From Promethearchaeota archaeon (lineage in GTDB: Archaea; Asgardarchaeota; Lokiarchaeia; Sigyniarchaeales; SOKP01), in assembly GCA_016840085.1 (NCBI GenBank), contig JAEOTA010000022.1, forward strand, positions 1 through 64,000: 64,000 nt of DNA, given 5' to 3'. Below the pieces are notes generated by a model. That model had not been told where the DNA came from, searched no databases, and saw only the letters and a list, made by a program, of their open reading frames with translations. Below are positions 14,542 through 40,679 of the stretch, one piece after another. How positions within the stretch are numbered: position 1 is the stretch's first letter; every line of letters starts with the position of its first letter. The position numbers and the translations under genes were made by a program.

Positions 14542-14715
14542 AAAAGAGAAAGAGAGTTATTATAATAAGATCAGCAATTTAGCTAAAATCCTAAAATTTT
14601 ATTTTTGAAGTGATAAAAGAATGAGAATTAAAAAAATTTTAATGGAGCACTATAATAAGTTTTTAAAATTTTTGTTTAGTGGTGTTTTTAACAATGACTT
14701 AAAAATTAAGGGTAT

Positions 14716-16469: not shown

Positions 16470-16500
16470 ATAACGCCATTTATAGAATGTTTATTTTTAG

Positions 16501-16714
16501 CTAAAAAAATGCCAACTTTCCTTTCTCTAATTCATAATCTACAAGAAATCCTGATACGGTTTGTAAACTATATTTTTTGAATATTAGAGATTATTATAAC
16601 ATCCCTTACAGAGAAATAACTATCTTTTTATTCAATAAAAAAACCTGCAAAGATACTCTTTTTATATAGGCGATTTCTCTTTTTATAATTAAACATAAAA
16701 TTCAAAAGATAAAA
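16501..16714 (+). repeat. ~210-bp non-coding direct repeat, copy 2
   Basis: Collinear with 8987-9198; lies just downstream of the HerA-like gene. Confidence 0.9.
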
Positions 16715-16816
16715 TTATGTTCAACTCAGGTAAAGAATTTAATCAAAAGAAGCTTTTTTTACATTTTAATGGTTTAGTAGACGAATATATGAATAGGATC
16801 GTTGGGAAACATAAAA

Positions 16817-18082: not shown

Positions 18083-18602
18083 TAATAATCCATTGCCTTT
18101 TGGAAATCTATATATAATTATTAAAGTAAATTGAAAATATATATTTTTCAATAAATGTGATTATACTAGCATAGAATATCAAAAAATTATTAATAGATTA
18201 AAAACAACAGATAGATTTCATAGGGGTTATGTACAATTTTATTCGAACAGTAATCTGTTTGTTCAAAAAATTAATAAAAAATATAAATTCAATCTCCCGC
18301 TTTTGTTGAGACAATCTAGCAAGGTTTTTCAGCTCTACGAGAAAAATTTCATGCAAAAATACAAAATTTTATTTACTAAATGATTAAATTCTAAATGAAT
18401 TAATCATAAAAAATTTAAGTAAACAGAAGAATTAAGATATTAACCAAAGCAAAAAATCTAAATTCCTAATATGTAACTTTTAATCATTATTAAAATATCC
18501 TTTACTTTTATGGGATTATAACTCAAAATATAAGAAAAATGATACAAATTATAGAATATGAGCTTAATGAATTTCCTCTAATAATTGAAAAAGGTTAGAA
18601 AT

Positions 18603-20532: not shown

Positions 20533-23301
20533 ATGGAGGTTCTCCGGAAATATGGTTACGACATTCTAGTTAATCATTTTGAACCTTTTTTAAGAAATTT
20601 CATAGTAAACATTGTATTATTAAAAAATTATAAGGATAATTGGAAAAAACAAATCCCAAAGCATATTGTAAGACGTTTAATTAAAGAAAGAAAGATAAAT
20701 TTTTCTAAAGTAAAGATTCATGAATTTTTTCAACAATTATTCTTCTCAGATTTAAAGAGTATTCTTATTTTTAGCGAAAATTATGAAAAATCAGAAGATC
20801 TTATAAAGGATTTGGAGAAAAATATGTTCATTTTATTAATGAATGAGTTAAATCGAATTAGACGTAAAGTTGCTCACGTTAAAGAAAATTTTTCTCAAAT
20901 AGATTTGGATAATATTAAAAATGACATTCGGAGTATATGTCGTGGTAAAGCGAGTGTTTCAATGATAGTTTTTATAGATAATGAAAAATATATTGAAAAT
21001 GTAAATTTAAAGTCAATAAAAATTGTGGATCAAGGAGATAAATGTAAGAATAATTTACCTGCTGCAGATTATGATTTAGATGGTGGTTTTGTTGGCAGGA
21101 ATAAAGAAATTAATGAAATTATCGAAAAAATTTACTCTGATTTAGATAGAATCATTACAATTAATGGTGCTGGTGGAGTAGGAAAAACTGCTTTAGCCTT
21201 AGAACTTACTAAATCGATATTAGATGATCCAGATAATCCTTTTGAGGCTATTATTTGGTTTAGTGCGAAAGAGGAGCGATTAACCGAAATTGAAATTGTT
21301 CCTATTGAACCTGACATTAAAGATTTAGAACAGTTAATAAATGACATTTTAGAAATAATTGATAAAAATGCATTTGAAAATTACCAACAAGTGAATGTTC
21401 CAATTGAATACTGTGTTGAGTTTTTATATAAAAGATTTCGAGAGCACAAATATTTGCTTATAATAGATAATCTTGAGACTATCCTAGAAAAAGAACATTT
21501 AATTAGATTTATTGAAGATGTGCCATGCAAAGTGCTAATAACAAGTCGAATGGGATTAGGAAGGCTTGAAAGACCAGTTACTTTAAAAGAGCTTGATGAA
21601 TCTGATGCATTATTATTATTTAAATATGTAGTAAAGGCCAGAGATATTCAGGATTTAATTAATTTAAACGATAAAAAAATTGTTAAATTAGTTAATAAAG
21701 TGAAAAGATATCCTTTAGCAATAAAGTGGTCGATTGGAAAATATCTTTTAGGTCAAAAAGTTGAAGAAGCATTTCCAAATAATTTACCAGGTGATAGTCT
21801 TATTGCCAAATTCAGTTTTGAACACATTTTCTCACTATTATCCGAAAATGACAAATTAGTACTTTATAGCATCATTGTGTGGAATGAATCTGTTTCTAAA
21901 GAAATGTTGAGATATCTCACAGAGTTGGATGATGAAGATTTAGATACAGCTATAAGAAATTTAATGTTAACGTCTTTCATTTATCTTGTTGATTTTAATA
22001 CAAAATATGCTATTTTAAGTCTTACAAGTGGATTTATAAATATAAAGTTAGACGAAAATAAAAAAATACGAGTAATACTCCAGAATAGAAAATATTATTT
22101 ATCAAAATTAATTGAAGGAGAAGAAAAACTAAGATCAAGTCGATATTCGCTAATAGATTCATTGGGTATAAAAACTCCTGAAGAAAAAATTGCATTTGAT
22201 TATATAAAAAAAGCAAAAGAGTTTTTCTTAATTAAGAATAATCTAAATGAATCTGAGAAATTATTTGAAACTGCTGTTAGCATTTCACCTGATTTGGGAT
22301 ATGTTTATGAAGAATTTTCCAAATTTGAGTTTTATAGAAAAAAAGATCATAATAAAGCAATTCAACTAGCAAAAAAGAGTATAGAAGTTGAACCTGAAAA
22401 TTTTCATCTTTGGCTTAATTATGGAATTATGCTAAGAAAGACTAATCAAGTAAAAGAAGCTATATTAATCTTAAAAAAAGCCTTAGAATTAAACCCAAAA
22501 TATATAACTACGGCATATCAACTAGCTCGGGCTTATACTTTTATAGGTGATTATAAAAAAGCAGATGAGTTATTAGAACAAGCACAAAACAAATCTAAAC
22601 TTCGCAATCAGAGACTTTATATTATCTCGTCAACAATAAGAATAGATAACTATATACGATGGGCTAAAGAACATTTATTTAATAAGAATTATGATAAAGC
22701 AATTAATTTATTGAATTACGCAGAAGGGTATGCTAATGATATCATCAATATTGATCCTAACGATGATTATATTCATTATTTTACAAGAGAATTACATTAT
22801 ACGTATGGCTTAATATATGAAACTAAAGGTGAATCTGATAATGCATTAAAATCCTTTGAAAATGCCGTGGCGGAAATTGCTAATAAGAGGGATATCGGAA
22901 ATCGTAAAAATCTTTTCGCAAGATCTTTCTATCGAATTGCAAAATTAAAAGAAAAAATAGGAGTTTTCAATATTCAAGAAATAATCGATTTTATTGATAA
23001 AGGATTAGCTGATTGTAAAAAGGATTCAAAAATATATAAAAAATTAAAAAAATTTAAAGTTCAAACTTTTAAATTAGATAAAGAACGTCTAATTGGAAAG
23101 ATTATTTATTTTAATCCAGATGAAGCATATGGTTTTATTAAAAGTAAAGAAGAAGAATATTTTTTTCATATAAGTGATTTTATAGAAAGGATTAATTCAA
23201 GTAGTTTAATTGATTCGAAAGGAAAAAAAGTTTCATTTAACGTTTTGAAGAAGCATGAGAATGGTAAAAAAGATATTGCTGTAAAAATTGATTTAATTTA
23301 A
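20533..23301 (+). CDS. Swt1-like HEPN + NB-ARC/STAND ATPase + TPR + cold-shock domain (Avs/NLR-like)
   Basis: FEPFLRNFI...RRKVAH; FVGRNKEI, GAGGVGKT, LLIIDNLE, VLITSR, YPLAI; TPRs; YFNPDEAYGFI...FFHISDF. Confidence 0.85.
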   Translation: MEVLRKYGYDILVNHFEPFLRNFIVNIVLLKNYKDNWKKQIPKHIVRRLIKERKINFSKVKIHEFFQQLFFSDLKSILIFSENYEKSEDLIKDLEKNMFILLMNELNRIRRKVAHVKENFSQIDLDNIKNDIRSICRGKASVSMIVFIDNEKYIENVNLKSIKIVDQGDKCKNNLPAADYDLDGGFVGRNKEINEIIEKIYSDLDRIITINGAGGVGKTALALELTKSILDDPDNPFEAIIWFSAKEERLTEIEIVPIEPDIKDLEQLINDILEIIDKNAFENYQQVNVPIEYCVEFLYKRFREHKYLLIIDNLETILEKEHLIRFIEDVPCKVLITSRMGLGRLERPVTLKELDESDALLLFKYVVKARDIQDLINLNDKKIVKLVNKVKRYPLAIKWSIGKYLLGQKVEEAFPNNLPGDSLIAKFSFEHIFSLLSENDKLVLYSIIVWNESVSKEMLRYLTELDDEDLDTAIRNLMLTSFIYLVDFNTKYAILSLTSGFINIKLDENKKIRVILQNRKYYLSKLIEGEEKLRSSRYSLIDSLGIKTPEEKIAFDYIKKAKEFFLIKNNLNESEKLFETAVSISPDLGYVYEEFSKFEFYRKKDHNKAIQLAKKSIEVEPENFHLWLNYGIMLRKTNQVKEAILILKKALELNPKYITTAYQLARAYTFIGDYKKADELLEQAQNKSKLRNQRLYIISSTIRIDNYIRWAKEHLFNKNYDKAINLLNYAEGYANDIINIDPNDDYIHYFTRELHYTYGLIYETKGESDNALKSFENAVAEIANKRDIGNRKNLFARSFYRIAKLKEKIGVFNIQEIIDFIDKGLADCKKDSKIYKKLKKFKVQTFKLDKERLIGKIIYFNPDEAYGFIKSKEEEYFFHISDFIERINSSSLIDSKGKKVSFNVLKKHENGKKDIAVKIDLI

Positions 23302-23557: not shown

Positions 23558-24385
23558 TTAAAATCTTGAAACATGTCGCGTTGAGATTTTTGGGTATTTC
23601 TTCTTTAGAATCTGAGATATTTCCTCTGAAAAATCGTATACTAATTGAAATAGATTTTCTTCATTAACTATTATTCCCAATTTATCTCTATATTTTACAA
23701 TTTTCTCCTCATCTTCTTTTTCGATTTGTGAAGGTAAATTCTCCAAATTGGAAAGAATTAAATCTAAATAAACAAAATCGCTAATAGCTTTTCTATCGTG
23801 GAATATTTCAATATTATATTTCTTACCTAAATTAATAATTTCATTCTTTAAACCAATATTAATGTTAATTGGGTCTATAGATTTGTCAAAATAGATGTAA
23901 ATAGTTTTATTTTGATCATTAAAGCCCCAATGTTCATTTAAATTCAGCCCCCTATGAGTAATCATTTTATCCCTGACATATTTTATCCTCAATTTAATCT
24001 TTCTTTCATATTTGAATATAAATTCTTTATATAAATTAAACCAAGAATCAGTATAAGGAGTTGTTTTTAAGCTTTTAACATGATCTTTAAAAGATCTTGA
24101 TTTTAAATTGTAATTAGATAAAAAAATTTGATTAATATATCTTATAAAATAATCGATATAGATTTTAGCAAATAGATATAAGGTTTTAATATCCAAAACA
24201 ATTGTTTCTAAATTAAAAGGAATGAATTTCCCCGTTCCAGAATATTTTGCTTCAATTTCCTTATTTTCTTTGATTCTGGTCAATAAAATTCGAAAGTAAG
24301 TAATAATTTGAATTAATACTCCTGCAGATTGAGATGCTTTTATATTATCGATTAATATTGGAATAGAAAACTCAAATTTACTCAT
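23558..24385 (-). CDS. HEPN-motif protein
   Basis: RDKMITH (R-x5-H); intact paralog of 3097..4029. Confidence 0.7.
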   Translation of the reverse strand: MSKFEFSIPILIDNIKASQSAGVLIQIITYFRILLTRIKENKEIEAKYSGTGKFIPFNLETIVLDIKTLYLFAKIYIDYFIRYINQIFLSNYNLKSRSFKDHVKSLKTTPYTDSWFNLYKEFIFKYERKIKLRIKYVRDKMITHRGLNLNEHWGFNDQNKTIYIYFDKSIDPININIGLKNEIINLGKKYNIEIFHDRKAISDFVYLDLILSNLENLPSQIEKEDEEKIVKYRDKLGIIVNEENLFQLVYDFSEEISQILKKKYPKISTRHVSRF

Positions 24386-25684: not shown

Positions 25685-27307
25685 ATGATTGATAAAGAGA
25701 TTTTATTAACTGAAGCAGATCCTAAATTTAAGGAATTCATGATTTCTGTTTTAGAGGAATTCGATCGTATTAGAACAAATCTACCAGGAATAGAAATAGG
25801 AAATAATCCTATTTCTCCTCATAATGAATATGTCATCCCTCCAAATTTATTTAGTGATTTTGGACAATTTGATATAGAAGAGTTTAACCCAAACGTAATA
25901 AATCAATTGAATGAATTATTACTAATAGATGAATTTCCTCTTCATATTTACTTTGATTTAGATTTTTCATATTATGGAATAAAAATTGTAAATTTTTATG
26001 ATAAGCTATTTGAAGAAACTTTTCTCATCTATTTATTCTGGAATTCTACCCTGCCTTTAAAAATATTATCAATGATAAATGAATTGCGAATGAGTTTTAA
26101 GTTAAAAAAAATGCCAATTAATATTCTAATTCCTTTAAAAGGATTTTATTTGCCAAGTAGAAAGGAAGATAATAATCATATGAGCAAAATCTATAATATT
26201 CAATTAAAAAAAATAGATGAAGCTACTCAAGTAGCGCTTAAGAATATCTCAAATTATTCTATAATAAATTTTCATTATAATGATAATGAAAACAAGATCC
26301 AATTTGTTTTTGAAGGAATTAATAAACAATTCTCAGAATTTTGTATTAATGCTAAAGGAAACACTGACTTTAAGCTACAGGAGTATGATCCAAGATATTC
26401 CTATTCATACCTATGGAGATATATCGAAGAAGTTGCTCAATCGTTAACTTTGGAAGGTACTTTACTAAGATTTGGTCAACCTTTTTATAATTTCCCTTGG
26501 TGGATTTCTAGTGAAACAAAAATAAGATTCGATTTCCATTACCCCGAGTGGATGAGTAATAAATTTATGAATAAAAATAATTATTCTGGATTAGTACCCG
26601 ATACAGAATCCTTTTCTACAACATTTTTCCGTCAAATGAGAAAATATTATGAAAAAGGAAAGCAATTATGGGAAAAAGATTTTATTATTAATTATGGGGC
26701 TCCACTGAACTCAGAGATGGAGTTTTTAAATGAGCTTCATTCAGATTCAAAATTTATATCTAATCCCGATAGAATCGTGTATCTTTTTAGAAATTTAAAT
26801 GATAACAAATCCACTATTAATTTTAAAAAAGATTTCTTCATTCTTGATAGATTTTTGAAATTAAGCCAAAGAGAAAAAATAGAAGACATTATTTTAGATG
26901 TTTGTATAATTTTAGAAACATTGTTATTATACAATATCCAGGATGAACTTTCTTATCGATTAAAGTTAAATGTTTCAAGTTTACTAGCTGAAAATGTCGA
27001 AGAATTCGACTTTTATTTTAATTTTTTCTCAGAATTGTATAAATATCGTAGTGCGATAATACATGGAAATCCAAAATTAACAAGAGGTTATAAAAATTTT
27101 GTTGAAAATACATATCCAAATCTATTAGAGAAGCTGGATATAAATAACGAAATCTCTAAGAATTTTATAAATAAAACAATACAGTATGATATATTCAAAA
27201 AGATATGCATGGTGTTTAATAAGTTAATAGATTCAAATATAGATTACCGTAATGATTTTAAAACAGATGGTTTTCTAAAAATATTTCTTAAAAAAGAACC
27301 AATTTAA
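25685..27307 (+). CDS. ApeA-like HEPN domain protein
   Basis: LETLL...ELSYRLKLNVS...LYKYRSAIIHG. Confidence 0.75.
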   Translation: MIDKEILLTEADPKFKEFMISVLEEFDRIRTNLPGIEIGNNPISPHNEYVIPPNLFSDFGQFDIEEFNPNVINQLNELLLIDEFPLHIYFDLDFSYYGIKIVNFYDKLFEETFLIYLFWNSTLPLKILSMINELRMSFKLKKMPINILIPLKGFYLPSRKEDNNHMSKIYNIQLKKIDEATQVALKNISNYSIINFHYNDNENKIQFVFEGINKQFSEFCINAKGNTDFKLQEYDPRYSYSYLWRYIEEVAQSLTLEGTLLRFGQPFYNFPWWISSETKIRFDFHYPEWMSNKFMNKNNYSGLVPDTESFSTTFFRQMRKYYEKGKQLWEKDFIINYGAPLNSEMEFLNELHSDSKFISNPDRIVYLFRNLNDNKSTINFKKDFFILDRFLKLSQREKIEDIILDVCIILETLLLYNIQDELSYRLKLNVSSLLAENVEEFDFYFNFFSELYKYRSAIIHGNPKLTRGYKNFVENTYPNLLEKLDINNEISKNFINKTIQYDIFKKICMVFNKLIDSNIDYRNDFKTDGFLKIFLKKEPI

Positions 27308-27452: not shown

Positions 27453-28961
27453 ATGGCTCAAAAAGAATTAGACAAATGGACAGGTCGAAAAATGCCGAAA
27501 TTAACCCTTGATAAGTTAGAGTCTTTTTTATGGAATGCTGCGGATATACTACGCGGCAGTATTGATTCCTCAGAATATAAACATTATATTTTTGGATTGT
27601 TGTTTCTAAAGCGACTTTCGGATGAGTTTGATGAGGAACACGAACAAGTTGAAGGTGATCCTGAAGATCCCGATAACTATCAGTTTTTTGTGCCAGAACG
27701 AGCTCGATGGAAGAGTATTCGTAGAGTATCAGAGGGAATTGGAAATGCTATAGATAAAGCTTTTGAAGCGCTAGAAGAAAATAATCCTCTCTTAGAAGGT
27801 GTCTTAACACCAATTCAATTTCAAGACCCTAAGCGTTTACCAGATGCAGTATTGAATAAGCTTATTACGCATTTTAGCCAACCCGAGTTTAACCTTGCCA
27901 ACTCGAATTTAAGCGAACCAGATATGCTAGGAAGAGCTTATGAATATTTGATTAAACAGTTTGCCGATGATTCTGGTAAAAAAGGAGGTGAATTCTATAC
28001 TCCCCAGGGTGTTGTAAAACTTTTAGTCCGACTTTTAGATCCTCAAGAAGGAATGAGAATTTGCGACCCTGCATGCGGTAGTGGTGGAATGCTTATTGAA
28101 AGTTTTAATTATTTGAAAGAACAAGGAAAAAATCCTAATAATATTTCAATTTTTGGACAAGAAAAGAATTTAAACACTTGGGCTATTGCGAAAATGAATT
28201 TTTTGCTACATAATATTCTTGATCACAGAATTGAACATGGGGATACTATGGCAGATCCCAAATTAAAAGAAGATAATCTTTTAATGTTATTTGATATCGT
28301 CATCGCGAATCCTATGTGGAATCAAAAAGAATGGAATCGTGAATCATTTGAGCGAGGAGATCGTTATGGAAGAGCAAAGTATGGAATCCCTCCAAAAAGC
28401 TCTGGTGATTGGATGTGGGTACAACACATGTTAGCCACATTGAATAACAGGGGAAGATTGGGAATAGTATTGGACAATGGCGCATTATTTCGAGGTCAGA
28501 GTGAAGGAAAAGTAAGAAAGGCAATTGTGGAAGCAGATGTTATTGAAGGAATTGTTGCGTTACCCTCTAATCTTTTCTATAATACTGGGGCTCCAGGTTG
28601 TTTAATAATAATAAATAAGCAAAAATCAGAAGAATTGAAAAATAAAATATTTTTTATCCATGCTGAAACTGAGTTTGAAGAAGGAAAAGCACAGAATTTT
28701 CTGAAAGATAAACACATCCGAAAGATATCGAAAACTTATAGAAAAAAAGAGGAAATAGAGAAATTTTCAGCATTAATCGATCTTGAGGAAATACAAGAAA
28801 ATGATTATAATTTGAACGTTTCCCGTTATATTGATACTTTACCTGAAGAAGAACCCATTGACGTTACTGAATATAATACAGAACTACAGAAACTGCAAAC
28901 TGAACGATTAGAATTAGAAAAAGATTTTGAGAGAAATATAAGAGATTTAGGGTATAAATAA
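27453..28961 (+). CDS. hsdM: Type I RM methyltransferase subunit
   Basis: LWNAADILRG, GEFYTP, DPACGSGG, ANPMW. Confidence 0.95.
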   Translation: MAQKELDKWTGRKMPKLTLDKLESFLWNAADILRGSIDSSEYKHYIFGLLFLKRLSDEFDEEHEQVEGDPEDPDNYQFFVPERARWKSIRRVSEGIGNAIDKAFEALEENNPLLEGVLTPIQFQDPKRLPDAVLNKLITHFSQPEFNLANSNLSEPDMLGRAYEYLIKQFADDSGKKGGEFYTPQGVVKLLVRLLDPQEGMRICDPACGSGGMLIESFNYLKEQGKNPNNISIFGQEKNLNTWAIAKMNFLLHNILDHRIEHGDTMADPKLKEDNLLMLFDIVIANPMWNQKEWNRESFERGDRYGRAKYGIPPKSSGDWMWVQHMLATLNNRGRLGIVLDNGALFRGQSEGKVRKAIVEADVIEGIVALPSNLFYNTGAPGCLIIINKQKSEELKNKIFFIHAETEFEEGKAQNFLKDKHIRKISKTYRKKEEIEKFSALIDLEEIQENDYNLNVSRYIDTLPEEEPIDVTEYNTELQKLQTERLELEKDFERNIRDLGYK

Positions 28962-28974
28962 AAATTCAATAGCT

Positions 28975-30171
28975 ATGAAAAAAACTAAGATTGGTTTGAT
29001 ACCCGAAGATTGGGAATTTTCAAATATTGGAAATTACTGTGATGTAATCACCGGGGGTACTCCGAGCACAAAAATTGAGGAGTATTTTAATCCTCCCGAA
29101 ATTCCTTGGATGAGATCTGGTGAAATAAAAGGATATAAAATAAAATCAATTTCTACTTTTATATCAAAAAAAGGATTAGAAAATTCAGCAGCGAGAATTC
29201 TTCCAAGAAAATCTGTTGTTATAGCACTAGCAGGTCAAGGAAAAACTCGTGGAACTACCTCGCCACTGGAAATCAAAAGCTCTTGTAATCAGTCAGTTGC
29301 TTGTATGGTACCAAATGGAAAACTAAATTACATATTTTTACACTATCATCTTAGTCGTTTATATAAATATATTAGAAATATTACTGGAGATGTTGGTCGA
29401 GAAGGCTTAAATCTAAAGTTGATTAGAAAATTCCCTTTAATTTTACCCCCTTTAAATGAACAACAAAAAATTGCTACAATACTATCTAATGTAGATGATC
29501 TTATTCTTCAAACAGATAAAATAATCGAAAATTTACAAATATTAAAAAGAGGGCTGATGCAACGCCTCTTTACGGAAGGCCTCGGGCATACCGAATTTAA
29601 ACAGACGAGATTGGGGAAAATTCCAAAAGAATGGGAAATTAAGAAACTTGAAAATATATTGATTCTTGAGTACGGAAAAGGATTACCCAAAAGGAAGAGA
29701 CAGAATGGTCCTATCCCAGTTGTAGGTTCAAATGGCATAATTGATTATCATAATGAACATTTAGTTAATGGACCAGGGATTGTAATAGGAAGAAAAGGCT
29801 CTATGGGAAAAGTTTCTTGGATAAATGAGAATTTCTGGCCAATTGATACAACTTATTTTATTAAAATTATCGATAATAGCATAGATAAGAAATGGCTTTA
29901 TTACGCTTTAACAAATTTAAATTTAGAAAGATTAAGTTTAAGTGACGTAGTTCCAGGTTTAAATCGTGAATACGCGTATTCAAGGAATATTTTAATACCC
30001 AAATTATATGAACAAGAGCAAATTGTAAAAATTTTAGAAAATATAGATAAAATTATTGAAAATGAGCAAAATTATTTAAATAACTTAAAAAATACAAAAA
30101 AAGGTTTAATGCAAGAGCTCTTAACAGGTAAAAAAAGAGTAAAAATTAATCAAGATGAAGTGTTATTATGA
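28975..30171 (+). CDS. hsdS: Type I RM specificity subunit
   Basis: Two TRD-conserved repeats (IPEDW/IPKEW; PPLNEQQKIA; KRGLMQ/KKGLMQELLTG). Confidence 0.95.
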   Translation: MKKTKIGLIPEDWEFSNIGNYCDVITGGTPSTKIEEYFNPPEIPWMRSGEIKGYKIKSISTFISKKGLENSAARILPRKSVVIALAGQGKTRGTTSPLEIKSSCNQSVACMVPNGKLNYIFLHYHLSRLYKYIRNITGDVGREGLNLKLIRKFPLILPPLNEQQKIATILSNVDDLILQTDKIIENLQILKRGLMQRLFTEGLGHTEFKQTRLGKIPKEWEIKKLENILILEYGKGLPKRKRQNGPIPVVGSNGIIDYHNEHLVNGPGIVIGRKGSMGKVSWINENFWPIDTTYFIKIIDNSIDKKWLYYALTNLNLERLSLSDVVPGLNREYAYSRNILIPKLYEQEQIVKILENIDKIIENEQNYLNNLKNTKKGLMQELLTGKKRVKINQDEVLL

Positions 30172-33100
30172 ATCTTTTTGATTGGAGTGAATATAACCAA
30201 ACAGAAAAACCAGCATTGGATTTATTACAAGAGCTAGGCTATCAACATAAAGAAGGAAAAGAAGTAAGTCCTCAATATACTACTATTGAACGTACCAGTC
30301 TTAGGGAAGTGATTCTTTCAGCAACATTAACAAAAAAGATTAAAGAATTTAACCCTTGGATTAATGAATCAAATATTAAGCAAGTTTTTCGTAAATTAAC
30401 AATAATAACCACTTCCAGTCAAATTGATTTTAATGAACAAATCTGGGAATATCTAACAAAACCTAGTAAGCTTGTAGTGGAGCAAGATCTTCATGATGGA
30501 AAAGGTCGGCGGAATCAATGGGTTATACTCATCGATTGGGATAATCCCAAGAAAAATGAATTTTTAGCAGTCAATCAATTTAAAGTTAATGCTTCCAGAG
30601 GGAATAGAATACCAGATATTGTAATTTTTATTAATGGTTTGCCATTAGTTGTAATTGAATGTAAAAGTCCTCTTTTAACAAACCCTTTGCAGCAAGGTAT
30701 ACGCCAGATTATAGAATATCAAGAAACAATACCTAAATTATTTTACCTTAACCAAATTATTATAGTTACAAGTAGTCAATCAGCTGTTTTTGGTGTTATT
30801 GGAAATTCATACGAGAACTTCCAAATTTGGAAGGATCCATATCCTATTACTAAAGACCAGCTTGGAAAAATTGTTGAACAAACAGGTCGTTCAACTCCAG
30901 ATCCTACACCTCAAGATATTCTACTTCATGGATTGCTTGAAAAAAGAAATCTTTTGGATTTAATTCGGAATTTTATAATTTTTGAAACTTTAAGAGGAAA
31001 GCTTATTAAAAAAATCGCTCGATATCAACAATTTAGAGCAACTAATATAACTCTAGCTCGTATCTTAACAGAAAAGGATCCTCAGCAGCGAGGTGGAACA
31101 ATTTGGCATACACAAGGTTCAGGAAAATCTCTCACTATGTTATTTACTGCGATAAAATTGAGGAGAGAGACAAAACTAAATAACCCTTTACTTGTTTTTA
31201 TATGTGATAGGATTAACTTAGTAAGTCAATTAAATAATACATTCGAAAGATGTGGATTTCCTAATCCGATTGAAGCTAAAAATGTTGATAATTTGCAGGA
31301 ACTTATCAAAATTGGACAAGGTGTCACAATATTTACAACAATTCAGAAATTTCGCACAAAAGATGCAGATTCACAAACAGGAATATCAAAAAGTGGATTA
31401 GAATTTTCTATATTTAATACAGAACAGAATATTTTTGTACTAGTTGATGAAGCACATCGTTCACAATATAAGATTTTCGGTATGAATATGCGTATCGGAA
31501 TGCCTAATGCATGTTATTTAGCATATACAGGAACTCCATTGGCTAAAAACGAATATAATGAGACAATTTCTGTTGGTAGAGGTAAAACAGTAAAAAAATT
31601 TGGAAAGATTATTGATAAATATGATATAAGGCAATCTGTTGAAGATGGTTCTACAGTAAAGATTCTTTATGAAAACCGACTACCTAAATTAACAGTAGAA
31701 GGAGAATCTATTGATGAGATTTTTAACCGTGTATTTGCTGATAAAACTCCTGAAGAGCGGGAAAGAATCAAACAGAAATATGCCACTGAAGATGCAATTC
31801 TAGCTGCTCCAGAAAGGATTAAAAAAGTTGTATTGGATATTCTGAAGCATTATGAAGATCATATTGAACCAAATGGATTTAAGGCTCAAATCGTAACAGC
31901 TTCAAGAAAATTAGCTGTTATGTACAAGAAATACTTAGATGATTTGAATGCTCCTGAATCTGTAGTAATTATTTCAGCAAATCCTCGCTATGATGATGAG
32001 TTAAGAGCTCTTGGTGTTGATTTTTTCACTGAAAAATCAAAGCAAAAAGAGAGGATTGAAAGATTTAAAGATGACAATGATCCTCTAAGATTTTTAATAG
32101 TGTGTGATATGCTCATTACGGGATTTGATGCTCCAATTGAACAAGTGATGTATCTTGATAAGAGATTGACAGAACACAATTTATTACAAGCTATTGCCAG
32201 GGTCAATAGAATTCATGAGGATAAAAATTATGGTCTTATTGTTGATTATTATGGTGTTTCTAATCATTTAGAAAGAGCCTTAGAAATCTTTGATAAACCT
32301 GACATTGAGGGGTTTATGAAATCCATTGAGAGTGAGTTGTATCCTTTAGAAGGATATCATAAAGCTGTGCTCTCTTACTTTGAAGAAATAGATATAAATG
32401 ATTTAGAAGCGTGTATTTTAGCTTTGGAGTCTGAAAGTGATAGAGCAGATTTTCACAGCGATTTTAAAAAGTTTGCGCAAAGTATGGATGTTGTTTTACC
32501 AGATCCCCGTGCTCAACCATATTTAACTGATTTAAAAAGATTTGGTATGATTTTACAAGCTGCAAAAAACCGTTATCGTGAAGAACAATTGAACCTCGCT
32601 GGATGTGGTAAGAAAGTCCAAAAGATTATAGATGAACACATAAGATCGACTGGTATTAAAATTTTAGTTGAACCTGTTCCCATTCTTTCAGAAAAATTCC
32701 AGGATGCATTAGATAGTCTAAAATCGGAAAAATCAGTCGCAAGTGAAATGCAACACGCTATTCAACATGAAATAAGTGTTAAAATAGATGAAGATCCCGT
32801 TTTTTATAGGAGTTTAAAAGAACGGTTAGAAGAAATAATACAGATGTACAATGAAAACAGAATCAATCTGGCCGAAAAAATTAAGAGATTAAGAGCACTA
32901 TATAATGAAATTAAAGAAAGACCAAATTTAGCTGAAAAAATGGGACTCAACAGCGCTGAGCTAGCAATTTTCAATTTATTAAAGGAGGATTCTATTAAAT
33001 CGGGGATTGAAGATGAGCGGGAAATTGTGAAATTCACCTATGAGATATTAGAAGCAATTGAACCATATGTAACTCTGATCGATTGGCAAAATAAATCTGA

Positions 33101-33227
33101 TATTTTAAGACAAATACGAAAGGCAAGCAAACTGGTCTTTCATCAGAAAGATATTGATAAAAAAAGACAAAATCCTTTAGCACATCAAATTGAAGAACTC
33201 GCTAAAGTACATTTTCCATCAAGATAA
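30168..33227 (+). CDS. hsdR: Type I RM restriction subunit
   Basis: PDIVIFINGLPLVVIECK, HTQGSGKS, DEAH, YTGTP, QAIARVNR. Confidence 0.95.
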   Translation: MNLFDWSEYNQTEKPALDLLQELGYQHKEGKEVSPQYTTIERTSLREVILSATLTKKIKEFNPWINESNIKQVFRKLTIITTSSQIDFNEQIWEYLTKPSKLVVEQDLHDGKGRRNQWVILIDWDNPKKNEFLAVNQFKVNASRGNRIPDIVIFINGLPLVVIECKSPLLTNPLQQGIRQIIEYQETIPKLFYLNQIIIVTSSQSAVFGVIGNSYENFQIWKDPYPITKDQLGKIVEQTGRSTPDPTPQDILLHGLLEKRNLLDLIRNFIIFETLRGKLIKKIARYQQFRATNITLARILTEKDPQQRGGTIWHTQGSGKSLTMLFTAIKLRRETKLNNPLLVFICDRINLVSQLNNTFERCGFPNPIEAKNVDNLQELIKIGQGVTIFTTIQKFRTKDADSQTGISKSGLEFSIFNTEQNIFVLVDEAHRSQYKIFGMNMRIGMPNACYLAYTGTPLAKNEYNETISVGRGKTVKKFGKIIDKYDIRQSVEDGSTVKILYENRLPKLTVEGESIDEIFNRVFADKTPEERERIKQKYATEDAILAAPERIKKVVLDILKHYEDHIEPNGFKAQIVTASRKLAVMYKKYLDDLNAPESVVIISANPRYDDELRALGVDFFTEKSKQKERIERFKDDNDPLRFLIVCDMLITGFDAPIEQVMYLDKRLTEHNLLQAIARVNRIHEDKNYGLIVDYYGVSNHLERALEIFDKPDIEGFMKSIESELYPLEGYHKAVLSYFEEIDINDLEACILALESESDRADFHSDFKKFAQSMDVVLPDPRAQPYLTDLKRFGMILQAAKNRYREEQLNLAGCGKKVQKIIDEHIRSTGIKILVEPVPILSEKFQDALDSLKSEKSVASEMQHAIQHEISVKIDEDPVFYRSLKERLEEIIQMYNENRINLAEKIKRLRALYNEIKERPNLAEKMGLNSAELAIFNLLKEDSIKSGIEDEREIVKFTYEILEAIEPYVTLIDWQNKSDILRQIRKASKLVFHQKDIDKKRQNPLAHQIEELAKVHFPSR

Positions 33228-33266: not shown

Positions 33267-34010
33267 ATGGTTTCTGAAATACAAACGATAAAGTATGGAG
33301 ATATAGAAATTAGTTATTCCATAGACCGAACGTCTCGTAAGACTATAGGTATAGTTGTAGAACCCGATGGGAAAGTAATAATCAAAGCACCTTTAGATTT
33401 AGAACAACAAATAATCCAGGAATCAATTTACAAAAAAAGAAAATGGATTGCTGAAAAAATAAAATTAACAGAGGAAATCGAAAAACCAATTCCGCTTAAA
33501 CATGAACTTGTTAGCGGAGAAAAAATATTATTAAAAAATAGATTAATTAGATTAAAAATACACCCTTATCCAAATAAAAGGTCAAAAATTACATACGCTT
33601 TTAAAATTCTTCATATTTATATTAATGAAACACTTTCTCAAAAGGAACGAGAAGAAGAAATAAAGAGAGTGCTGATTAATTGGTATAAAGAAAAAGCTCT
33701 TAATATTATCACTAATAGAATTGATAAATACTTGGCATTAATTGATTTCAGGCCTCACGGAATTAAAATTAGAAACCAAAAAGTAAGATGGGGCAGTTGT
33801 ACTAAAGATGGAAAATTAATTTTTAATTGGAGAATTGTAATGGCTCCTATATCAGCTATTGATTATATTATTGTTCATGAATTATCACATTTAAAGGAAC
33901 CTACTCATTCTACTAAATTCTGGAGTATAGTTCAATCGCTGTTTCCCAATTTCAAAAAATGTAAAGAATGGCTTAGAATAAATGGATTAAATTTAGAATT
34001 AAGAATTTAA
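33267..34010 (+). CDS. M48/YgjP (DUF45) zinc metallopeptidase commonly following type I RM
   Basis: RWGSC, DYIIVHELSHL, HSTKFW. Confidence 0.9.
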   Translation: MVSEIQTIKYGDIEISYSIDRTSRKTIGIVVEPDGKVIIKAPLDLEQQIIQESIYKKRKWIAEKIKLTEEIEKPIPLKHELVSGEKILLKNRLIRLKIHPYPNKRSKITYAFKILHIYINETLSQKEREEEIKRVLINWYKEKALNIITNRIDKYLALIDFRPHGIKIRNQKVRWGSCTKDGKLIFNWRIVMAPISAIDYIIVHELSHLKEPTHSTKFWSIVQSLFPNFKKCKEWLRINGLNLELRI

Positions 34011-34030: not shown

Positions 34031-36763
34031 CTACTCATTATTTAATGGATTTTCAATAAGATTTTGTAGAACTTCATTTTTTTCTAAAATTTCGGGACAT
34101 TGTTCAAAATGATATGAAATCCATCGAACTTTTCCATCTTGAATTTTATTATAGAAATAACAGGCATTTTTATTTTTTCTGGGTTCTAACGAAATTGTAA
34201 AAAATGGCAATAATTTAAGTGGTGTAAGTTGATTTTTTTCGATCATATATATAGTACCTTTATCCATTGGGATTGATGTTATTATTTCTTTTTTTTTAAA
34301 AATCATTGAAGGTCCTTTTAAGTCATGAACAGTATAACTGTATTTACCAAATTCGTAATCATTCTTACCTGGTAGTATAAATAATAAAGAATCAAATTTG
34401 TTAGCCATAACTTCTCTAAAGTTAGTTAATTCTTTTTCTAAAAGAGTTAAACGGTTCGATATTATGTCTGGATTCATAATTCCACTGTGACCTTTCCAAT
34501 CGTTCCGATATCTATTAGTAATTTTTAAAATCTTCATTAATTTATCATTAATAATAGATTCTAGAATTTCTATAGTATTAATATGGTATAAAGAAAGGCA
34601 GAGATTCCTATTTTCAGAACTAAATAGTAAATCATTTGTGATTTTAATAAGAGTAGAATTATAGGTGACCAACTTACCAAATGTACTAAATTTTAAATTT
34701 TTAAATCCCTTCTCATTTGTAAAAATTGTCTTTTTGAAGCGGTCAAATAGTTCTGTTTTCCAATACATAGCACTAATCATTATAGTAAATAAAAATTCTG
34801 CTAAAGCTTCAAAAAAATTGAGTAAATGATCCACTTTTAATTTTGGTTTAATATCCGCATGATATCGTATTAATATTGAAGCCAATGGGTATGGGAGTTT
34901 GTTAATCCATTCTTCAAAACCTTCCTTGCGATTAAACGAACTTAACTTTTGTCTGATGTTATTTATTTCCTTAAGGTTTGACCATAATTTAGAATCGTAT
35001 TCTTTAAGTTGCAGAATAATCTCTCGTATATTTTGATGTAAATCGATAATTATATTTTGAGTATTTATATCTGGAAGATATATTTTTGATGTTATTAAAC
35101 TTTTCTTTGAAATACTTGGAATTACAGATCCAAAAGATATATGTTCTCTCAATTTTAAGCCAAGAGGGGAATTATAAAAACCTGAAGCAAAATCTGCCAA
35201 TAATTTATCTGGATTAAAAACTAACTGAATATAATTATGTGGTTTTAAGCTAATTTCATCTAAATTTACTATTGACTCAGATCTGCCAATTTTTGGTAGG
35301 TATATTGAGTTAGATTTTGACTCAAATCCGTTTAATAAATCTTTAGAACTTAAATTAATTTCACTTATCAAATCTTTCAGATAGTACGAATCTAATCTCA
35401 TTTTAGATGCAATAGAATCAAGATCATTAATATAAATTTTAGGGTATAAATTATAATCATTTTTTTTAATTGTTTCTATATTAATTATAGCAGAAAATTG
35501 CTCAATATTTTCTAATTTTTCATAAGCGCTTAGAATTTTATTTAGATGAAATTCCTGAAGTATATTTTTTCCCTGAAAATGTTCAAATTCATCTTTAGCT
35601 TGAATGAAATAAATATTATTTTTCAATATTTCTGGTTTGTTCTTATTAATTATAATTACACAGCAAGATATATTCGTATTCCAGAATAGATTGGAAGGCA
35701 ACTCTATAATAGTTTCAATTAAATCATCCTTTATGAATGCTTTTCTAATCTTCCTTTCTGATCTACCTCGAAATAATGCCCCATTATCTGTAAGAATTCC
35801 AAATCTTCCATATTCTGAAGTTATTTCTAACATATGCTGCAGCCACATCCAATCACCAGAAGTTTTTGGTGGTATTCCATATTTAGATCTATTATATGGA
35901 TCTCCATTTGTATAATGCTTTCGAGGCCAATCCCATTGATTCATTGGAGGACTAGATATTACAATATCAAATTTCATTAATTCATTATTTTGAAGAAATG
36001 GATTGATTAATGAATTGCCTAATTCTATTTTTGCACTAAAAAATCCACTTAAAAAAAAATATAATTTTGTAATATACCACAAATCATAACTTAATTCTTT
36101 ACCAAAAATCGACAAGTTATCTAAATTATTACCCTTTTCCTTAAGATTATTAACTGATTCTAATAAAAAACTCCCATTACGAGAACAAGGATCACATATC
36201 TTCATACCTTCTTCTGGCTTTAATAGTTTAATTATTAATTTAACAATTTGAGGTGGTGGTAAAAATTCATTATTACTTTCACTACTAATATAGCCCCCAT
36301 ATTTAATGATCAATTCAAACCCAATAAGAATTAATCCAGTATCCATTAGATTTGAATTAGATAAATTATATTTAGGATTGCTAAAATGTTGTATTAATTT
36401 ATTTAATAATCTATCTGGTAAATTAGTAGGATCCATAAATTGAATTGGAGTAAATAAACCTTTCAAAATGGGGTTAAAATCTTCTAAAGCATCAAATGCC
36501 TTATCGATTTCAAAACCAATTCCTTCAGAAACATTACGAATATCCCTCCAATGTGCACCATCTGGAATAAATATCTCATAATTATCCGGATCTTCTGGAT
36601 CACCTTTTAAATGGTTGAATATCTCATCAAATTGATCACTTATCCTTTTTAAAAAAAAGAGTGCACTTAGATAGTAAAACTTCTTTTTTTTAAATTTTAA
36701 TACACTTAAAATTTCTCCTGCTTCCCATAAAAACCTCTCTAAAGTAATTAGATCTATTGTCAT
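34031..36763 (-). CDS. Degenerate HsdM paralog + half HsdS-like region + HEPN fusion
   Basis: N-terminal half closely tracks HsdM (GDPEDPDNY, VSEGIG, YGIPPK.SGDWMW) but motif I is DPCSRNG and motif IV is SPPM; GSVIPSISK...LPDINTQ (HsdS-like); FFEALAEF...RNDWKGH. Confidence 0.8.
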   Translation of the reverse strand: MTIDLITLERFLWEAGEILSVLKFKKKKFYYLSALFFLKRISDQFDEIFNHLKGDPEDPDNYEIFIPDGAHWRDIRNVSEGIGFEIDKAFDALEDFNPILKGLFTPIQFMDPTNLPDRLLNKLIQHFSNPKYNLSNSNLMDTGLILIGFELIIKYGGYISSESNNEFLPPPQIVKLIIKLLKPEEGMKICDPCSRNGSFLLESVNNLKEKGNNLDNLSIFGKELSYDLWYITKLYFFLSGFFSAKIELGNSLINPFLQNNELMKFDIVISSPPMNQWDWPRKHYTNGDPYNRSKYGIPPKTSGDWMWLQHMLEITSEYGRFGILTDNGALFRGRSERKIRKAFIKDDLIETIIELPSNLFWNTNISCCVIIINKNKPEILKNNIYFIQAKDEFEHFQGKNILQEFHLNKILSAYEKLENIEQFSAIINIETIKKNDYNLYPKIYINDLDSIASKMRLDSYYLKDLISEINLSSKDLLNGFESKSNSIYLPKIGRSESIVNLDEISLKPHNYIQLVFNPDKLLADFASGFYNSPLGLKLREHISFGSVIPSISKKSLITSKIYLPDINTQNIIIDLHQNIREIILQLKEYDSKLWSNLKEINNIRQKLSSFNRKEGFEEWINKLPYPLASILIRYHADIKPKLKVDHLLNFFEALAEFLFTIMISAMYWKTELFDRFKKTIFTNEKGFKNLKFSTFGKLVTYNSTLIKITNDLLFSSENRNLCLSLYHINTIEILESIINDKLMKILKITNRYRNDWKGHSGIMNPDIISNRLTLLEKELTNFREVMANKFDSLLFILPGKNDYEFGKYSYTVHDLKGPSMIFKKKEIITSIPMDKGTIYMIEKNQLTPLKLLPFFTISLEPRKNKNACYFYNKIQDGKVRWISYHFEQCPEILEKNEVLQNLIENPLNNE

Positions 36764-37546: not shown

Positions 37547-39613
37547 ATGAACGTAGTAAAAGTTTTGGGTAAAGAATATCAAATCACTGATGCCTCCCTT
37601 GACTTAAGTGGAATATCTTTAGAAAGTATCTCTGATATAAAAGGATTAGATAATTTTTCTAATCTTAAACTCCTTTTTCTTGATGAGAATGAGATTTCCG
37701 AGATAGCGGGGTTAGAATCTCTTGAAAGTCTCGAAATATTATCATTAGCAGATAATAGAATATCTGAAATTAAAGGACTTAATACTTTAACCAATTTAAA
37801 ATTCTTAGATCTTCGTTTAAATGATCTTTATGAAATAAAGGGATTAGAATTTTTAATAAATTTAGAAGAATTAATTCTTGACGATACTGGCATTTCAGAA
37901 ATAAAAGGACTTGATAACTTAAAAGATTTAAAGATTTTATCGCTAGACTACAATTCTATAAAAGAAGTTAAAAATTTAGATGGATTGTATGACTTAGAAG
38001 AATTATATTTAAATCTTAATGAAATAAGTAAAATAAAGAATCTGGACAACCTAAAAAATCTAAAAACTTTAGGTCTTGAATCAAATAAGATCTCAGAAAT
38101 CATAGGACTTGAACATTTAAAAAGATTAGAATTTTTAAATCTTTCTGATAATCCATTAGAGGGTATAGATGAGTTTTATGTAAGGAGTGAAGTTAATGCA
38201 CAAACTATAGTTGAATATTGTCTGAGAAAAACTCGTGGTGAGCCAGAAAATATTGAATTTTATGATCTAAATAAAATATATGATCAAAATCTAAATGAGT
38301 TTAAACTCTATTTAGAAAAATTAAATTCTGATGATTTTATTAACATAGGAACTCATCGAGAATTTAAAAAGCATAGAATTATACAAAATAGGATATTTTT
38401 TGAATATCCCGTTGAAAGAGTCTTTTTATCAGATGTAGATACTTCATTTAGTAGGCTAAAGATTCATATTATACAACTGCATTCTTTAAAAGGCATTGAA
38501 TATAATGAAAGTGATAAATTGGAATTTTTTAAATATATAATAAGACATTTCTGGGATAATAAAGAAATTGAAGAAAAGAATGTTTTAGTATATAAAGATT
38601 TTAACTATCGAATCTCAAGCAAAATTGATGAAATTCTAGATTTATCGATAATTAAAAATCAATTTCCTCCGAATCTAGTTATATTTCCAGAAAATTCTAT
38701 ACCTTATTCCAAAGTTGAGGATTTAAAAATAATTTCTAAAAATTACAGAGTTATTATGATTGGTGGACTAGAACATCGCATAGATAATATTGGTGAAAAT
38801 TTTACAAATACAGCTTTTATTATTGATAAGGGAAATATCGGTTATCAAATAAAGCAAACACCTGTAAAGATTATTGATTCGAAAAACAATAACATTTTGC
38901 AAGAAAGAATAATTTGTCAAAAAATTCCTAAGATTAAAATTTTCCAAACCTCTATCGGGAGCGTTGCTGTAATTATTTGTAAAGATTTTTTAAGATTAAG
39001 TGATATTATCTCCAATTGGGCGAAAAAGAATGAGGTTGATATTATTGTAATCCCTTCCCTAACAAGTAAAGTTCTTCCTTTCCACTCTAAACTATTCAAT
39101 ATTTTGAATTACTCAACTCACAAAGATTTAATTATCATATTTAGTAATATAGGGGAATATGGGGGTTCTGAATTATTTTCTATTGATACAAATCCTCAAA
39201 TTGAAGCTAAATTTAGAAAAAATGTTTATGATAATATAGGTGAAACCATTATAGTCAGAGAGATTGATTTAAAAACAATTAAATTAATAATGTCTGACAT
39301 AAAATTTAAATTTTTAAAAGATTGGGATAAACTAGAAAAGATCCTTATTCTCAAAATAATGGCAAATATGAATCAAGAAATAACTCCAACTCCTCAAAAT
39401 CATACTTCTATTATGAAATTCCTTCAAAAAAAAAAATTAATATCAGCACAAAATTTATTTGATTTTTATGAATTAAGGAAAATTAGGAATTCCATAGTTA
39501 GTGATAAAATAATTGCCCGAAGAACATTAGAAAATTTCAATAATAGATTAAGTGATTTAATAAGATCTCTTGAGAAAATAACGATAAAAAAAATAATTGA
39601 ACTAAAAATTTAA
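37547..39613 (+). CDS. Leucine-rich repeat + carbon-nitrogen hydrolase (nitrilase-like) protein with degenerate HEPN-like tail
   Basis: About 8-9 22-aa LRRs (LxxLxLxxNxIxEIxGL); IFPE, IKQTP, IICKDF (E-K-C triad); ELRKIRNSIVS. Confidence 0.8.
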   Translation: MNVVKVLGKEYQITDASLDLSGISLESISDIKGLDNFSNLKLLFLDENEISEIAGLESLESLEILSLADNRISEIKGLNTLTNLKFLDLRLNDLYEIKGLEFLINLEELILDDTGISEIKGLDNLKDLKILSLDYNSIKEVKNLDGLYDLEELYLNLNEISKIKNLDNLKNLKTLGLESNKISEIIGLEHLKRLEFLNLSDNPLEGIDEFYVRSEVNAQTIVEYCLRKTRGEPENIEFYDLNKIYDQNLNEFKLYLEKLNSDDFINIGTHREFKKHRIIQNRIFFEYPVERVFLSDVDTSFSRLKIHIIQLHSLKGIEYNESDKLEFFKYIIRHFWDNKEIEEKNVLVYKDFNYRISSKIDEILDLSIIKNQFPPNLVIFPENSIPYSKVEDLKIISKNYRVIMIGGLEHRIDNIGENFTNTAFIIDKGNIGYQIKQTPVKIIDSKNNNILQERIICQKIPKIKIFQTSIGSVAVIICKDFLRLSDIISNWAKKNEVDIIVIPSLTSKVLPFHSKLFNILNYSTHKDLIIIFSNIGEYGGSELFSIDTNPQIEAKFRKNVYDNIGETIIVREIDLKTIKLIMSDIKFKFLKDWDKLEKILILKIMANMNQEITPTPQNHTSIMKFLQKKKLISAQNLFDFYELRKIRNSIVSDKIIARRTLENFNNRLSDLIRSLEKITIKKIIELKI

Positions 39614-39618
39614 ATTAT

Positions 39619-40679
39619 TTATAACGACGGAATTAATTTCGCAAAACTGCAGCGAGTTTTAATTTCTATTGATGATAATTTAAAACTTCTTATAAATTTT
39701 ATGAGTGCACGCTGAAATTTCTTGAAAGTGTCAAAAAAAGTGTTATGCGTGACCTGTTTGCGGAAGAACTTCCAAAACCACTCCATTGGATTTAAATCGG
39801 GGGAGTATGGCGGTAGAAAGAGAAGCTCAAATTTTTCCTTGTTAGCTTCTAAAAATGGTTCTAACTCCTTAGAATGGTGCGCACGGGCATTGTCCAATAT
39901 CAGGAGGATTTTCCCCGAGTTCATATACCTGGCAAGGAGCCCCTCTAAAAAATGTTGGAAATGGGATGCCTTTAACGTGTTAGATAATGCCACATGAACT
40001 TTTCCAGCTAGGGGTTCAACTGCACCAATGAGATGTTGTCGTTGCCGACCGCCGTAGGTTAAGATTTCGGGCTGTTGCCCTTTTAACGACCACATGCGAG
40101 TGATGGACGGCGAAAACTGGATACTCGCCTCGTCTTGGAAAAGAACTACGCCATCTTCTCCGAGAGAGTCCAAACTTTTTTAAAATCATTTAGGAATTCT
40201 TTTTGTTTCTCAATATCAGCCTTCGGAAACTTGTATCTCGGACGTTGGAGCGTAAACCCTAGCTTGTGAAGGAGTCTCTGCGCTTGGCGCACGCTTAATT
40301 CCACGCCAAATTTCTGTTTAATGTGATACGACACGCTCTTTCCTTCCCAATTGCTAAACTCATACCCTAATTCACGAGGATGGGTTAACACATCCGCTTT
40401 TAACGTTTCTTTTTCTTCTTCAGAAAGGCTTGAGGGGCGCCCTGGAGGTGTATTTGGAACGATGTTTTCTAATCCACCCTCATTGAACATCTTTACCAAA
40501 GTTTGTATCGTTCTACGAGATTTTTTTATTAGTTCTGCAACTATCGTGCAGTTCATGAACTCATGCATCAAAAAAAGAGCATGATATCGTTCTTTCAGCT
40601 TAGAATTTTTCTCTTTCTTGTAGAGCTCGACCAACTCATCGTGGTTTGGCGAGCTCCTTGTTATTTGAAGTTTTTCCAT
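39619..40679 (-). CDS. IS630 transposase (HTH orfA 40146..40679 + DDE orfB 39619..40173, -1 frameshift at TTTTAAAAAAG ~40175-40185)
   Basis: FQDEA, ILDNARAH, LPPYSPDLNPME; PGRP and HTH in orfA. Confidence 0.9.

Follow-up and report, generated by a model that had tools for sequence, protein, structure and literature searches.

To our knowledge, few guards of restriction-modification (R-M) systems have been described (PrrC, PARIS, Ronin and EcoR22I) and all come from E. coli. PrrC, an anticodon nuclease embedded in a type IC R-M locus, joins an ABC-ATPase to a HEPN effector; EcoprrI, a complex distinct from it, keeps it silent, and it has been proposed to serve as a second line of defence (PMC3710099, PMC12707154). 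In Ronin of E. coli ECOR55, which consists of three genes (hsdM, hsdS and that of the 61-aa membrane toxin RonA), usually without hsdR, R-M methylase parts act as bait, toxin output on anti-restriction proteins (ArdA, Ocr, Aop1) has been demonstrated, and killing is independent of HsdM catalysis (10.1101/2023.04.06.535777). PARIS (AriA/AriB), composed of an ABC ATPase and a TOPRIM nuclease, senses Ocr and responds by tRNA cleavage (PMC12707154). The Vibrio vulnificus methyltransferase (MTase) 7EEW and Esub1 (8VSQ/8VSR; PMC11754733) have one target recognition domain (TRD) and a dimerising coiled coil, and phage proteins bind to them; according to the title of its structure, the 7EEW chain, with its half-S-like tail, was solved in complex with Ocr. 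Here we describe P0001, a protein encoded in a 64-kb window (64,000 nt, the whole stretch of DNA analysed) at the start of contig JAEOTA010000022.1 within the 4.68-Mb genome of a Promethearchaeota archaeon, in which a degenerate HsdM, half of an HsdS, a probable HEPN domain and a beta-rich domain are fused in one chain next to a type I R-M operon.

Judged from its domains, P0001 is best read as working like PrrC and Ronin while belonging to neither, because it has no ABC ATPase and no RonA; Pfam, PADLOC and NCBIfam scans revealed no ATPase domain, and all 910 aa are assigned to other domains. As with PrrC, a probable HEPN effector is found with type I R-M, and in many members of the P0001 family the gene lies within the operon, flanked by hsdS and hsdR, but the sensor of P0001 would be a fused dead HsdM and half-HsdS, with no ATPase, and this copy is convergent on the operon. 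The bait in which catalysis is dispensable recalls Ronin, whose demonstrated toxin output we infer for P0001; unlike Ronin, P0001 is a single polypeptide whose effector, a soluble helical domain (the probable HEPN), is fused to the rest, whose active site is degenerate by nature and which has a complete R-M system adjacent. 7EEW, described as an intact MTase, and Esub1 carry no toxin domain, and the domains of PARIS are unrelated. Finally, Anantharaman et al. (2013; PMC3710099), who surveyed HEPN domains as back-up effectors of R-M, reported them joined with nucleases, helicases and ATPases but with no methylases, a rule to which the P0001 family, with a probable HEPN fused to a disabled methylase, would be a large exception.

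Our preferred reading, to which we assign a probability of about 0.45, is that P0001 is a self-contained single-chain guard or decoy for type I restriction. That it plays an anti-virus role with HEPN output, whatever the trigger, we consider likely.

A degenerate HsdM that has lost its catalytic motifs

The original prediction described an uninterrupted 910-aa frame, convergent on the R-M operon, whose N-terminal ~450 aa parallel the HsdM encoded nearby. Both points hold: the frame has no internal stop and its stop codon lies 20 nt from that of ygjP, the last gene of the hsdM-hsdS-hsdR-ygjP array, and residues 1-448 of P0001 align with residues 17-463 of the resident HsdM at 51% identity (E 2e-161). 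The protein and the same layout were found in three independent Logan assemblies, excluding an assembly artefact; among the data sets listed as containing it, none was of RNA. The alignment stops at HsdM residue 463, P0001 lacking the C-terminal HsdM helices that contact HsdS. No N-terminal PD-(D/E)xK nuclease was found in the Pfam scan, the N terminus being HsdM_N, unlike that of type IIG/IIB single-chain R-M enzymes. P0001 scored under the TIGR00497 equivalog cut-off (130 vs 243 bits).

The substitutions that the prediction quoted for three motifs are present as described (Table 1). When sites conserved in at least 95% of ~120 HsdMs were taken as invariant, 62% of them were found to be retained in P0001, as was the MTase fold. 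The sites lost include G179, Y182 and T183 in motif X and G209 and S210 in motif I, as well as Q236, D264, T265, A285 and N286, and W289 is replaced by Met. Motifs X, I, III and IV are thus all altered: the glycine loop of motif I is not kept (resident G209 and S210 become R195 and N196 in P0001), and motif IV departs from (N/D/S)-P-x-(F/Y/W) with its aromatic gone. In EcoKI, G177D impairs SAM (S-adenosylmethionine) binding, and changes of N266 or F269 abolish activity (PMC2647291). The changes in P0001 fall at the positions of EcoKI G177, N266 and F269 in the motif alignment, strongly suggesting that its MTase part is inactive and unable to methylate.

Selection on the frame and origin of the M part

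Between the P0001 gene and resident hsdM, which share 64% nt identity, nonsynonymous divergence (dN) is 0.42 and synonymous divergence (dS) ~1.9, so that the dN/dS comparison proposed in the original prediction points to purifying selection. Neutral decay to the same nt identity would leave 30% aa identity (max 35%) and ~29 stops (min 18), whereas 51% and 0 stops were observed. The P0001 frame is therefore under purifying selection and neutral decay is excluded; a pseudogene was accordingly rejected.

The prediction had also called the M part a copy of the resident HsdM, 5 kb away. The distance is right (~5 kb end to end), but a recent tandem duplication at the DNA level was rejected on the nt identity and dS, with four-fold sites close to chance (19/46, where 35% is expected). 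What stands is the kinship: among ~120 HsdMs, the resident one is the nearest sampled relative of the P0001 M part, and in the HsdM tree the two fall in a 7-row clade (96/95), with branches of 2.7 for P0001 and 0.04 for the resident. Synonymous sites are saturated. Strict sisterhood is neither supported nor rejected (approximately unbiased test, p=0.16), and the placement depends on the taxa: a second set places P0001 near the resident (97/90), and a third joins it to archaeal fusion relatives (80/90). In the C-terminal tree, the sisters of P0001 are three archaeal long forms, P0064, P0330 and P0159 (SH 94), whose loci resemble the source genome; their M parts are 32-36% identical to that of P0001, keep DPPW and motif I, and bear signatures of the NPMW lineage to which the resident HsdM belongs. 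P0001 leans to the resident subclade (diagnostic sites 6:2; identity 50% vs 43-48%), which these three do not. Moreover, aa 61-130 of P0001 are 64% identical to the resident HsdM and 16-20% to the archaeal fusion relatives.

By its sequence, the M part of P0001 belongs to the same HsdM lineage as the resident. Either an old archaeal fusion may later have been refreshed from a resident-like hsdM, or P0001 may have decayed more slowly than its relatives. A clean 'recent swap' was not established, because the placement of P0001 shifts with the taxon set and the relatives are also NPMW-derived. Two further sources were rejected: the half-S was not copied from the resident hsdS, to which it is just 27-30% identical over short stretches, and a mosaic with the pseudo-MTase of the short-form family is not indicated, P0001 scoring 46 bits on that profile, where ordinary HsdMs score 48.5 +/- 7.4. 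Since this score is no better than that of ordinary HsdMs, the likeness of the P0001 motifs to those of the short-form pseudo-MTase is convergent. Across the family, full HsdM-like N-termini occur on at least five separate branches and come from different HsdM lineages, so that M-part swapping is recurrent; some of their bearers (P0125, P0304, P0052) keep intact motifs. P0064, P0330 and P0159 may still bind SAM or methylate; of their loci (L082, L093, L086), one adjoins a type IIG-like MTase and one lies amid housekeeping genes.

A half-HsdS predicted to dimerise, followed by a probable HEPN RNase

In an AlphaFold model built from 124 homologs (pLDDT 94), residues 452-610 of P0001 form a TRD with a long helix, residues 611-795 a helical bundle and residues 796-910 a beta-rich domain. 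The HsdS-like segment named in the original prediction is borne out as a half-HsdS, a TRD fold followed by a coiled coil, both by profile (hmmsearch E 5e-9, for the PacII S subunit, to 2e-7 against five S subunits) and by fold (Esub1 Z 11.9, rmsd 3.9, 143 aligned; PacII S 10.9; 7EEW 9.2). Two copies of residues 452-910 were predicted to pair through the coiled coil with a score of 0.51 (best control 0.00), the runs agreeing in at least 69% of contacts at pLDDT of at least 80. The mark thus passed was reached by 20/30 proteins solved as pairs and by 1/23 solved as single chains, and the pass may reflect memory of solved half-HsdS dimers such as Esub1. In this model, contacts from 149-120/124 to 156-124/128 (model numbering) indicate that the pre-HEPN helix returns towards the two-fold axis near 132-135, so that both HEPN domains would begin close together.

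For the helical bundle, the 124-row alignment adds N754 (96% conserved) to the residues given in Table 1, and in a model of the bundle alone (pLDDT 93.5) the RNDWKGH motif ends helix 132-149. Its fold matches include the N-terminus of Roquin (Z 9.4, rmsd 3.2, 121 aligned), which we take to be a HEPN domain, followed by LsoA (7.3), 1wwp (7.2), Csm6 (6.9), 2hsb (6.8) and 8xdj (6.7), with RnlA and sacsin at Z 6-7. Together with invariant R753/H759 and with E652, this list makes the bundle a probable HEPN RNase; of the HEPN-type domain claimed originally, the motif is thus in place, and the domain identity is probable with middling fold scores. The claim had missed the fourth conserved domain, the beta-rich one. 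For the C-terminal 300 aa, Pfam, NCBIfam and PADLOC offer no model, and Foldseek with the C-terminal-half model found nothing in the PDB at E<=0.001.

A widespread family, with about half of its well-flanked loci linked to type I R-M

The C-terminal module is shared by a widespread family overlooked in the original prediction: a search with this half collected 1,340 clusters at 50% identity, 935 of them at E<1e-10. The family spans many bacterial phyla and archaea, and its members are annotated merely as 'N-6 DNA methylase' or hypothetical; Legionella resiliens (L075), Rufibacter (L030) and Psychroflexus (L029) are among the cultured hosts that carry one. Searches by feature in the protein atlas gave unnamed clusters alone, a plasmid search gave four weak actinobacterial matches, and a literature search found no description of a dead-MTase/half-S/HEPN architecture, subscription papers being mostly outside its coverage. 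No full-length P0001 ortholog was found in 60 related genomes, which are incomplete metagenome-assembled genomes, or in three congeners with hsdM.

Most members are 730-790 aa long and carry a shorter, much older pseudo-MTase; typical ones of 750-790 aa have no recognisable HsdM N-terminal domain. A canonical motif IV, (N/D/S)PP(F/Y/W), is present in 9/107 short-form members, and motifs I and IV are both intact in 4/107; across the family, the acidic residue of motif II is mostly lost, and the Asp, Pro and last Gly of motif I are mostly kept. The pseudo-MTase is the least conserved part (mean pairwise identity 25%, vs 34-36% for the TRD, HEPN and beta domains). The TRD, at 34%, compares with 17% for the TRDs of neighbouring HsdS proteins, a comparison biased in that members were collected by a search on that region. 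Elsewhere the HEPN+beta module has kinases, helicases, CHAT or Macro domains as its fusion partners, a pattern that fits a mobile effector.

We surveyed the neighbourhoods of 79 GTDB loci, 38 of them well-flanked (at least 7 kb on both sides), scoring R-M genes within 10 kb. A complete hsdM+hsdS+hsdR set was found at 25/79 loci (18/38 well-flanked), with the family gene between hsdS and hsdR at 20/79 (11/38), a position that the best C-terminal match to P0001 also has. The linkage of homologs to type I R-M on which the prediction relied is therefore real for part of the family, and 18/38 well-flanked loci have no type I R-M gene nearby. Rather than heading the operon, linked members lie within it or follow it, in some cases overlapping hsdS or hsdR or directly adjoining one of them, and L042 shares the convergent layout of the window. 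The background for linkage is low, with a single hsdM in the whole source genome and a close hsdM in 4/54 congeners. The tree implies at least 7 changes of linkage, and linked loci occur in many phyla; since embedded and stand-alone states cluster by clade, with one large embedded clade and stand-alone clades that include a Bacteroidota-rich and a Methanomicrobiales one, the rows are not independent.

The neighbours of stand-alone members are mixed, some being defensive (Gabija, Shedu, AbiE, BanI). Eight stand-alone loci (L009, L034, L036, L052, L059, L062, L065 and L071) lie next to SAM or S-adenosylhomocysteine (SAH) genes, a weak hint of SAM/SAH sensing; the SAH hydrolase neighbours belong to the Methanomicrobiales clade, and L009 has a SAM synthetase and a SAH hydrolase. 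A congener retains a 94-aa remnant of the beta domain amid housekeeping genes (L091:1468-1752), suggesting loss of a full gene. At L096:7029-9185, an HsdM with motif IV NPPM (P0058) has been fused independently and straight to HEPN+beta, without a TRD, and is followed by an hsdR fragment, in an island that shares an NB-ARC/TPR gene with the window. A Pedobacter contig (L012:3882-10207) carries two family members near each other.

Proposed mechanism and alternatives

We propose that two copies of P0001 pair via the half-HsdS coiled coil, as predicted, into a dimer that would resemble the M2S1 methyltransferase clamp and carry two M domains and two TRDs. Its M domains being apparently unable to methylate, the clamp would serve as bait rather than enzyme, while the two HEPN domains would exit the coiled coil near the two-fold axis and be kept inactive. 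An anti-restriction protein from a virus or plasmid, for instance a mimic of DNA or some other binder of type I enzymes, would enter the clamp and flex the coiled coil, letting the HEPN pair form an RNase site; the activated HEPN would then cut host RNA, probably tRNA or other translation RNA, leading to dormancy or death. Because the bait is of the same HsdM lineage, it should attract the inhibitors of the neighbouring R-M system. In known cases, Ocr occupies and strains the M2S1 clamp (PMC2647291), and the phage protein paratox flexes the helices of the Esub1 dimer by ~11 Å (PMC11754733).

Several observations weigh against the guard or decoy reading. Ocr, ArdA and Stp are bacterial inhibitors and the host here is archaeal. 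Nearly half of the well-flanked loci stand alone, and the P0001 gene is itself no part of the R-M operon, its transcription running opposite; the nearest orthologous operons (L099, L100, G077) have no such gene, for which reason we regard P0001 as an accessory at a variable slot after ygjP. P0064, P0330 and P0159, with DPPW and the motif I glycines kept, are not near type I R-M as far as their surroundings can be seen. The confident dimer interface covers the half-S region alone, with the HEPN domains outside it. The HEPN assignment itself meets middling fold scores (Z 9.4 at most, unrelated GPCR bundles drawing level at Z ~7), no hit at E<=0.001 when the bundle model was run with Foldseek against the PDB, and faint Pfam support (2/100 members).

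Two alternatives seem to us unlikely, to about the same degree. P0001 might, in the manner of PrrC, join the resident R-M complex, for example through an N-terminal M-M interface, and be silenced there until inhibition or loss of the complex releases it. The N-terminal domain does form the M-M bridge in EcoKI (PMC2647291); aa 61-130 are far closer to the resident HsdM than those of relatives (21-24%), and the genes of many homologs are located within the operon. A strict need to assemble with a host MTase is nevertheless argued against by the half of well-flanked members without R-M, including the Bacteroidota-rich and Methanomicrobiales clades, by typical members that lack the HsdM N-terminal domain and by the absence from P0001 of the helices that contact HsdS. 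Alternatively, the dead clamp might respond to base modifications, to one fixed site in DNA or to how much SAM/SAH is present, triggering HEPN with no protein inhibitor involved. SAM depletion has been proposed as an unexploited danger signal (PMC12707154); the conserved TRD, within its selection bias, suggests a fixed ligand, and the motif I residues kept in most members and the adjoining SAH hydrolase or SAM synthetase genes fit such sensing. Yet P0001 should be unable to bind SAM because of the G-to-R change in its motif I, most family members have lost the motif II acid, and the SAH-hydrolase neighbourhood comes down to one methanogen clade and one bacterium.

We think it very unlikely that P0001 is a non-lethal regulator, a dead MTase-TRD dimer that would tune R-M expression by attaching to RNA or to a palindromic operator, with HEPN working as an RNA-binding domain or a mild RNase. 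Palindromes are what a homodimer would read with its two identical TRDs, as discussed for Esub1 (PMC11754733), but the catalytic Arg and His are invariant, the HEPN+beta module is fused to varied partners like a mobile effector, no outstanding operator-like palindrome was found upstream of the P0001 gene, and members do not stand at the operon head. Very unlikely too, by a slight margin more so, is a single-chain MTase that is active with its atypical SPPM, or a decaying relic: the fold and most invariant sites are kept, close relatives keep DPPW, and Ser at motif IV position 1 is known in active enzymes, but all four motifs are altered, the aromatic is lost, and the selection analysis excludes neutral decay.

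Genomic setting

The P0001 gene marks the right-hand end of a defence island of low GC content with the hsdM-hsdS-hsdR-ygjP genes and several STAND/TPR and HEPN-like genes; the window also holds ribosomal genes (rps13/4/11) and leucine-rich repeat (LRR) proteins, which suggest a host among the Lokiarchaeia. Promoter, terminator and repeat scans gave no signal beyond chance. The features are collected in Table 1.

Table 1. Features of the P0001 gene and the neighbouring R-M operon, in window coordinates
Feature	Position	Strand	Remarks
Pseudo-methyltransferase / half-HsdS / HEPN (probable) / beta-domain fusion, P0001	34031..36763	-	910 aa, uninterrupted
HsdM N-terminal helical domain (aa 8-127)	36383..36742	-	Pfam PF12161, E 7e-11
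Degenerate N6-MTase catalytic domain (aa 158-446)	35426..36292	-	Pfam PF02384, E 4.5e-70
Altered motif X NEFLPP (aa 165-170; resident GEFYTP)	36254..36271	-	
Altered SAM-binding motif I DPCSRNGS (aa 191-198; resident DPACGSGG)	36170..36193	-	
Altered catalytic motif IV SPPM (aa 271-274; resident NPMW)	35942..35953	-	Asn and stacking aromatic lost
Junction segment (aa 441-455)	35399..35443	-	53% identical to archaeal fusion relatives, 20% to resident HsdM
Single TRD, conserved across family	35078..35401	-	profile and fold
HsdS-type coiled coil and fold-back helix, predicted homodimer interface	34934..35077	-	model
Probable HEPN domain (aa 611-795)	34379..34933	-	E652 99% conserved; R753 and H759 invariant
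HEPN-type motif RNDWKGH (aa 753-759)	34487..34507	-	
Conserved C-terminal beta-rich domain (aa 796-910)	34034..34378	-	travels with HEPN domain; no named family
Resident hsdM	27453..28961	+	502 aa; motif I intact, motif IV NPMW typical of clade
hsdS, two TRDs	28975..30171	+	
hsdR	30168..33227	+	translation shows nuclease, Walker A and DEAH motifs
ygjP-like M48 metallopeptidase	33267..34010	+	last gene of R-M operon

The NPMW of the resident HsdM is itself non-canonical and is kept in a clade of ~30 proteins, a subclade of which has DPMN without the aromatic and may comprise further inactive or m4C/m6A-type subunits. Directly upstream of hsdM, two unannotated proteins (25685-27307 and 23558-24385) have HEPN-like R-x4-5-H motifs (RSAIIH and RDKMITH) and no Pfam or PADLOC match. 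Before these, 20533-23301 encodes a 922-aa protein with a Swt1-like HEPN (R-x4-H visible), NB-ARC, TPR and a cold-shock protein domain, resembling an Avs/STAND-like receptor with an RNase head, and similar genes lie near hsdM in L096 and L100. The island reaches leftwards (7135-20279) with an IrrE-like peptidase, an AAA_15/21 ATPase, TPR proteins, a TPR-S1/CSD TOTE-type protein and an RNase HII fusion, and includes a HerA-like gene apparently split over two frames (14716-16469). On the other side of P0001, a 688-aa LRR and nitrilase-like fusion with a helical tail (37547-39613; weak PADLOC match to an RT-associated nitrilase, E 2.6e-13) is followed by an IS630-like element (39619-40679).

Implications

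New here are the archaeal long form with a bait of the resident lineage, the recurrent exchange of M parts, a model of the dimer and a count of how many members stand alone. We tentatively raise the possibility that the family as a whole comprises single-chain 'integrated decoy' immune receptors in both bacteria and archaea, in which a dead type I MTase clamp is wired to a HEPN RNase and the bait is repeatedly replaced by local HsdM lineages, tracking the inhibitors of resident R-M systems; P0001 would be an example from the Asgard archaea, its bait matched to the resident system. R-M inventories are inflated when such genes are counted as active type I MTases. The P0001 family would constitute a one-gene sensor-effector, whose C-terminal half no defence model covers, and it could act as a reporter for finding anti-restriction proteins, including those of archaeal viruses.

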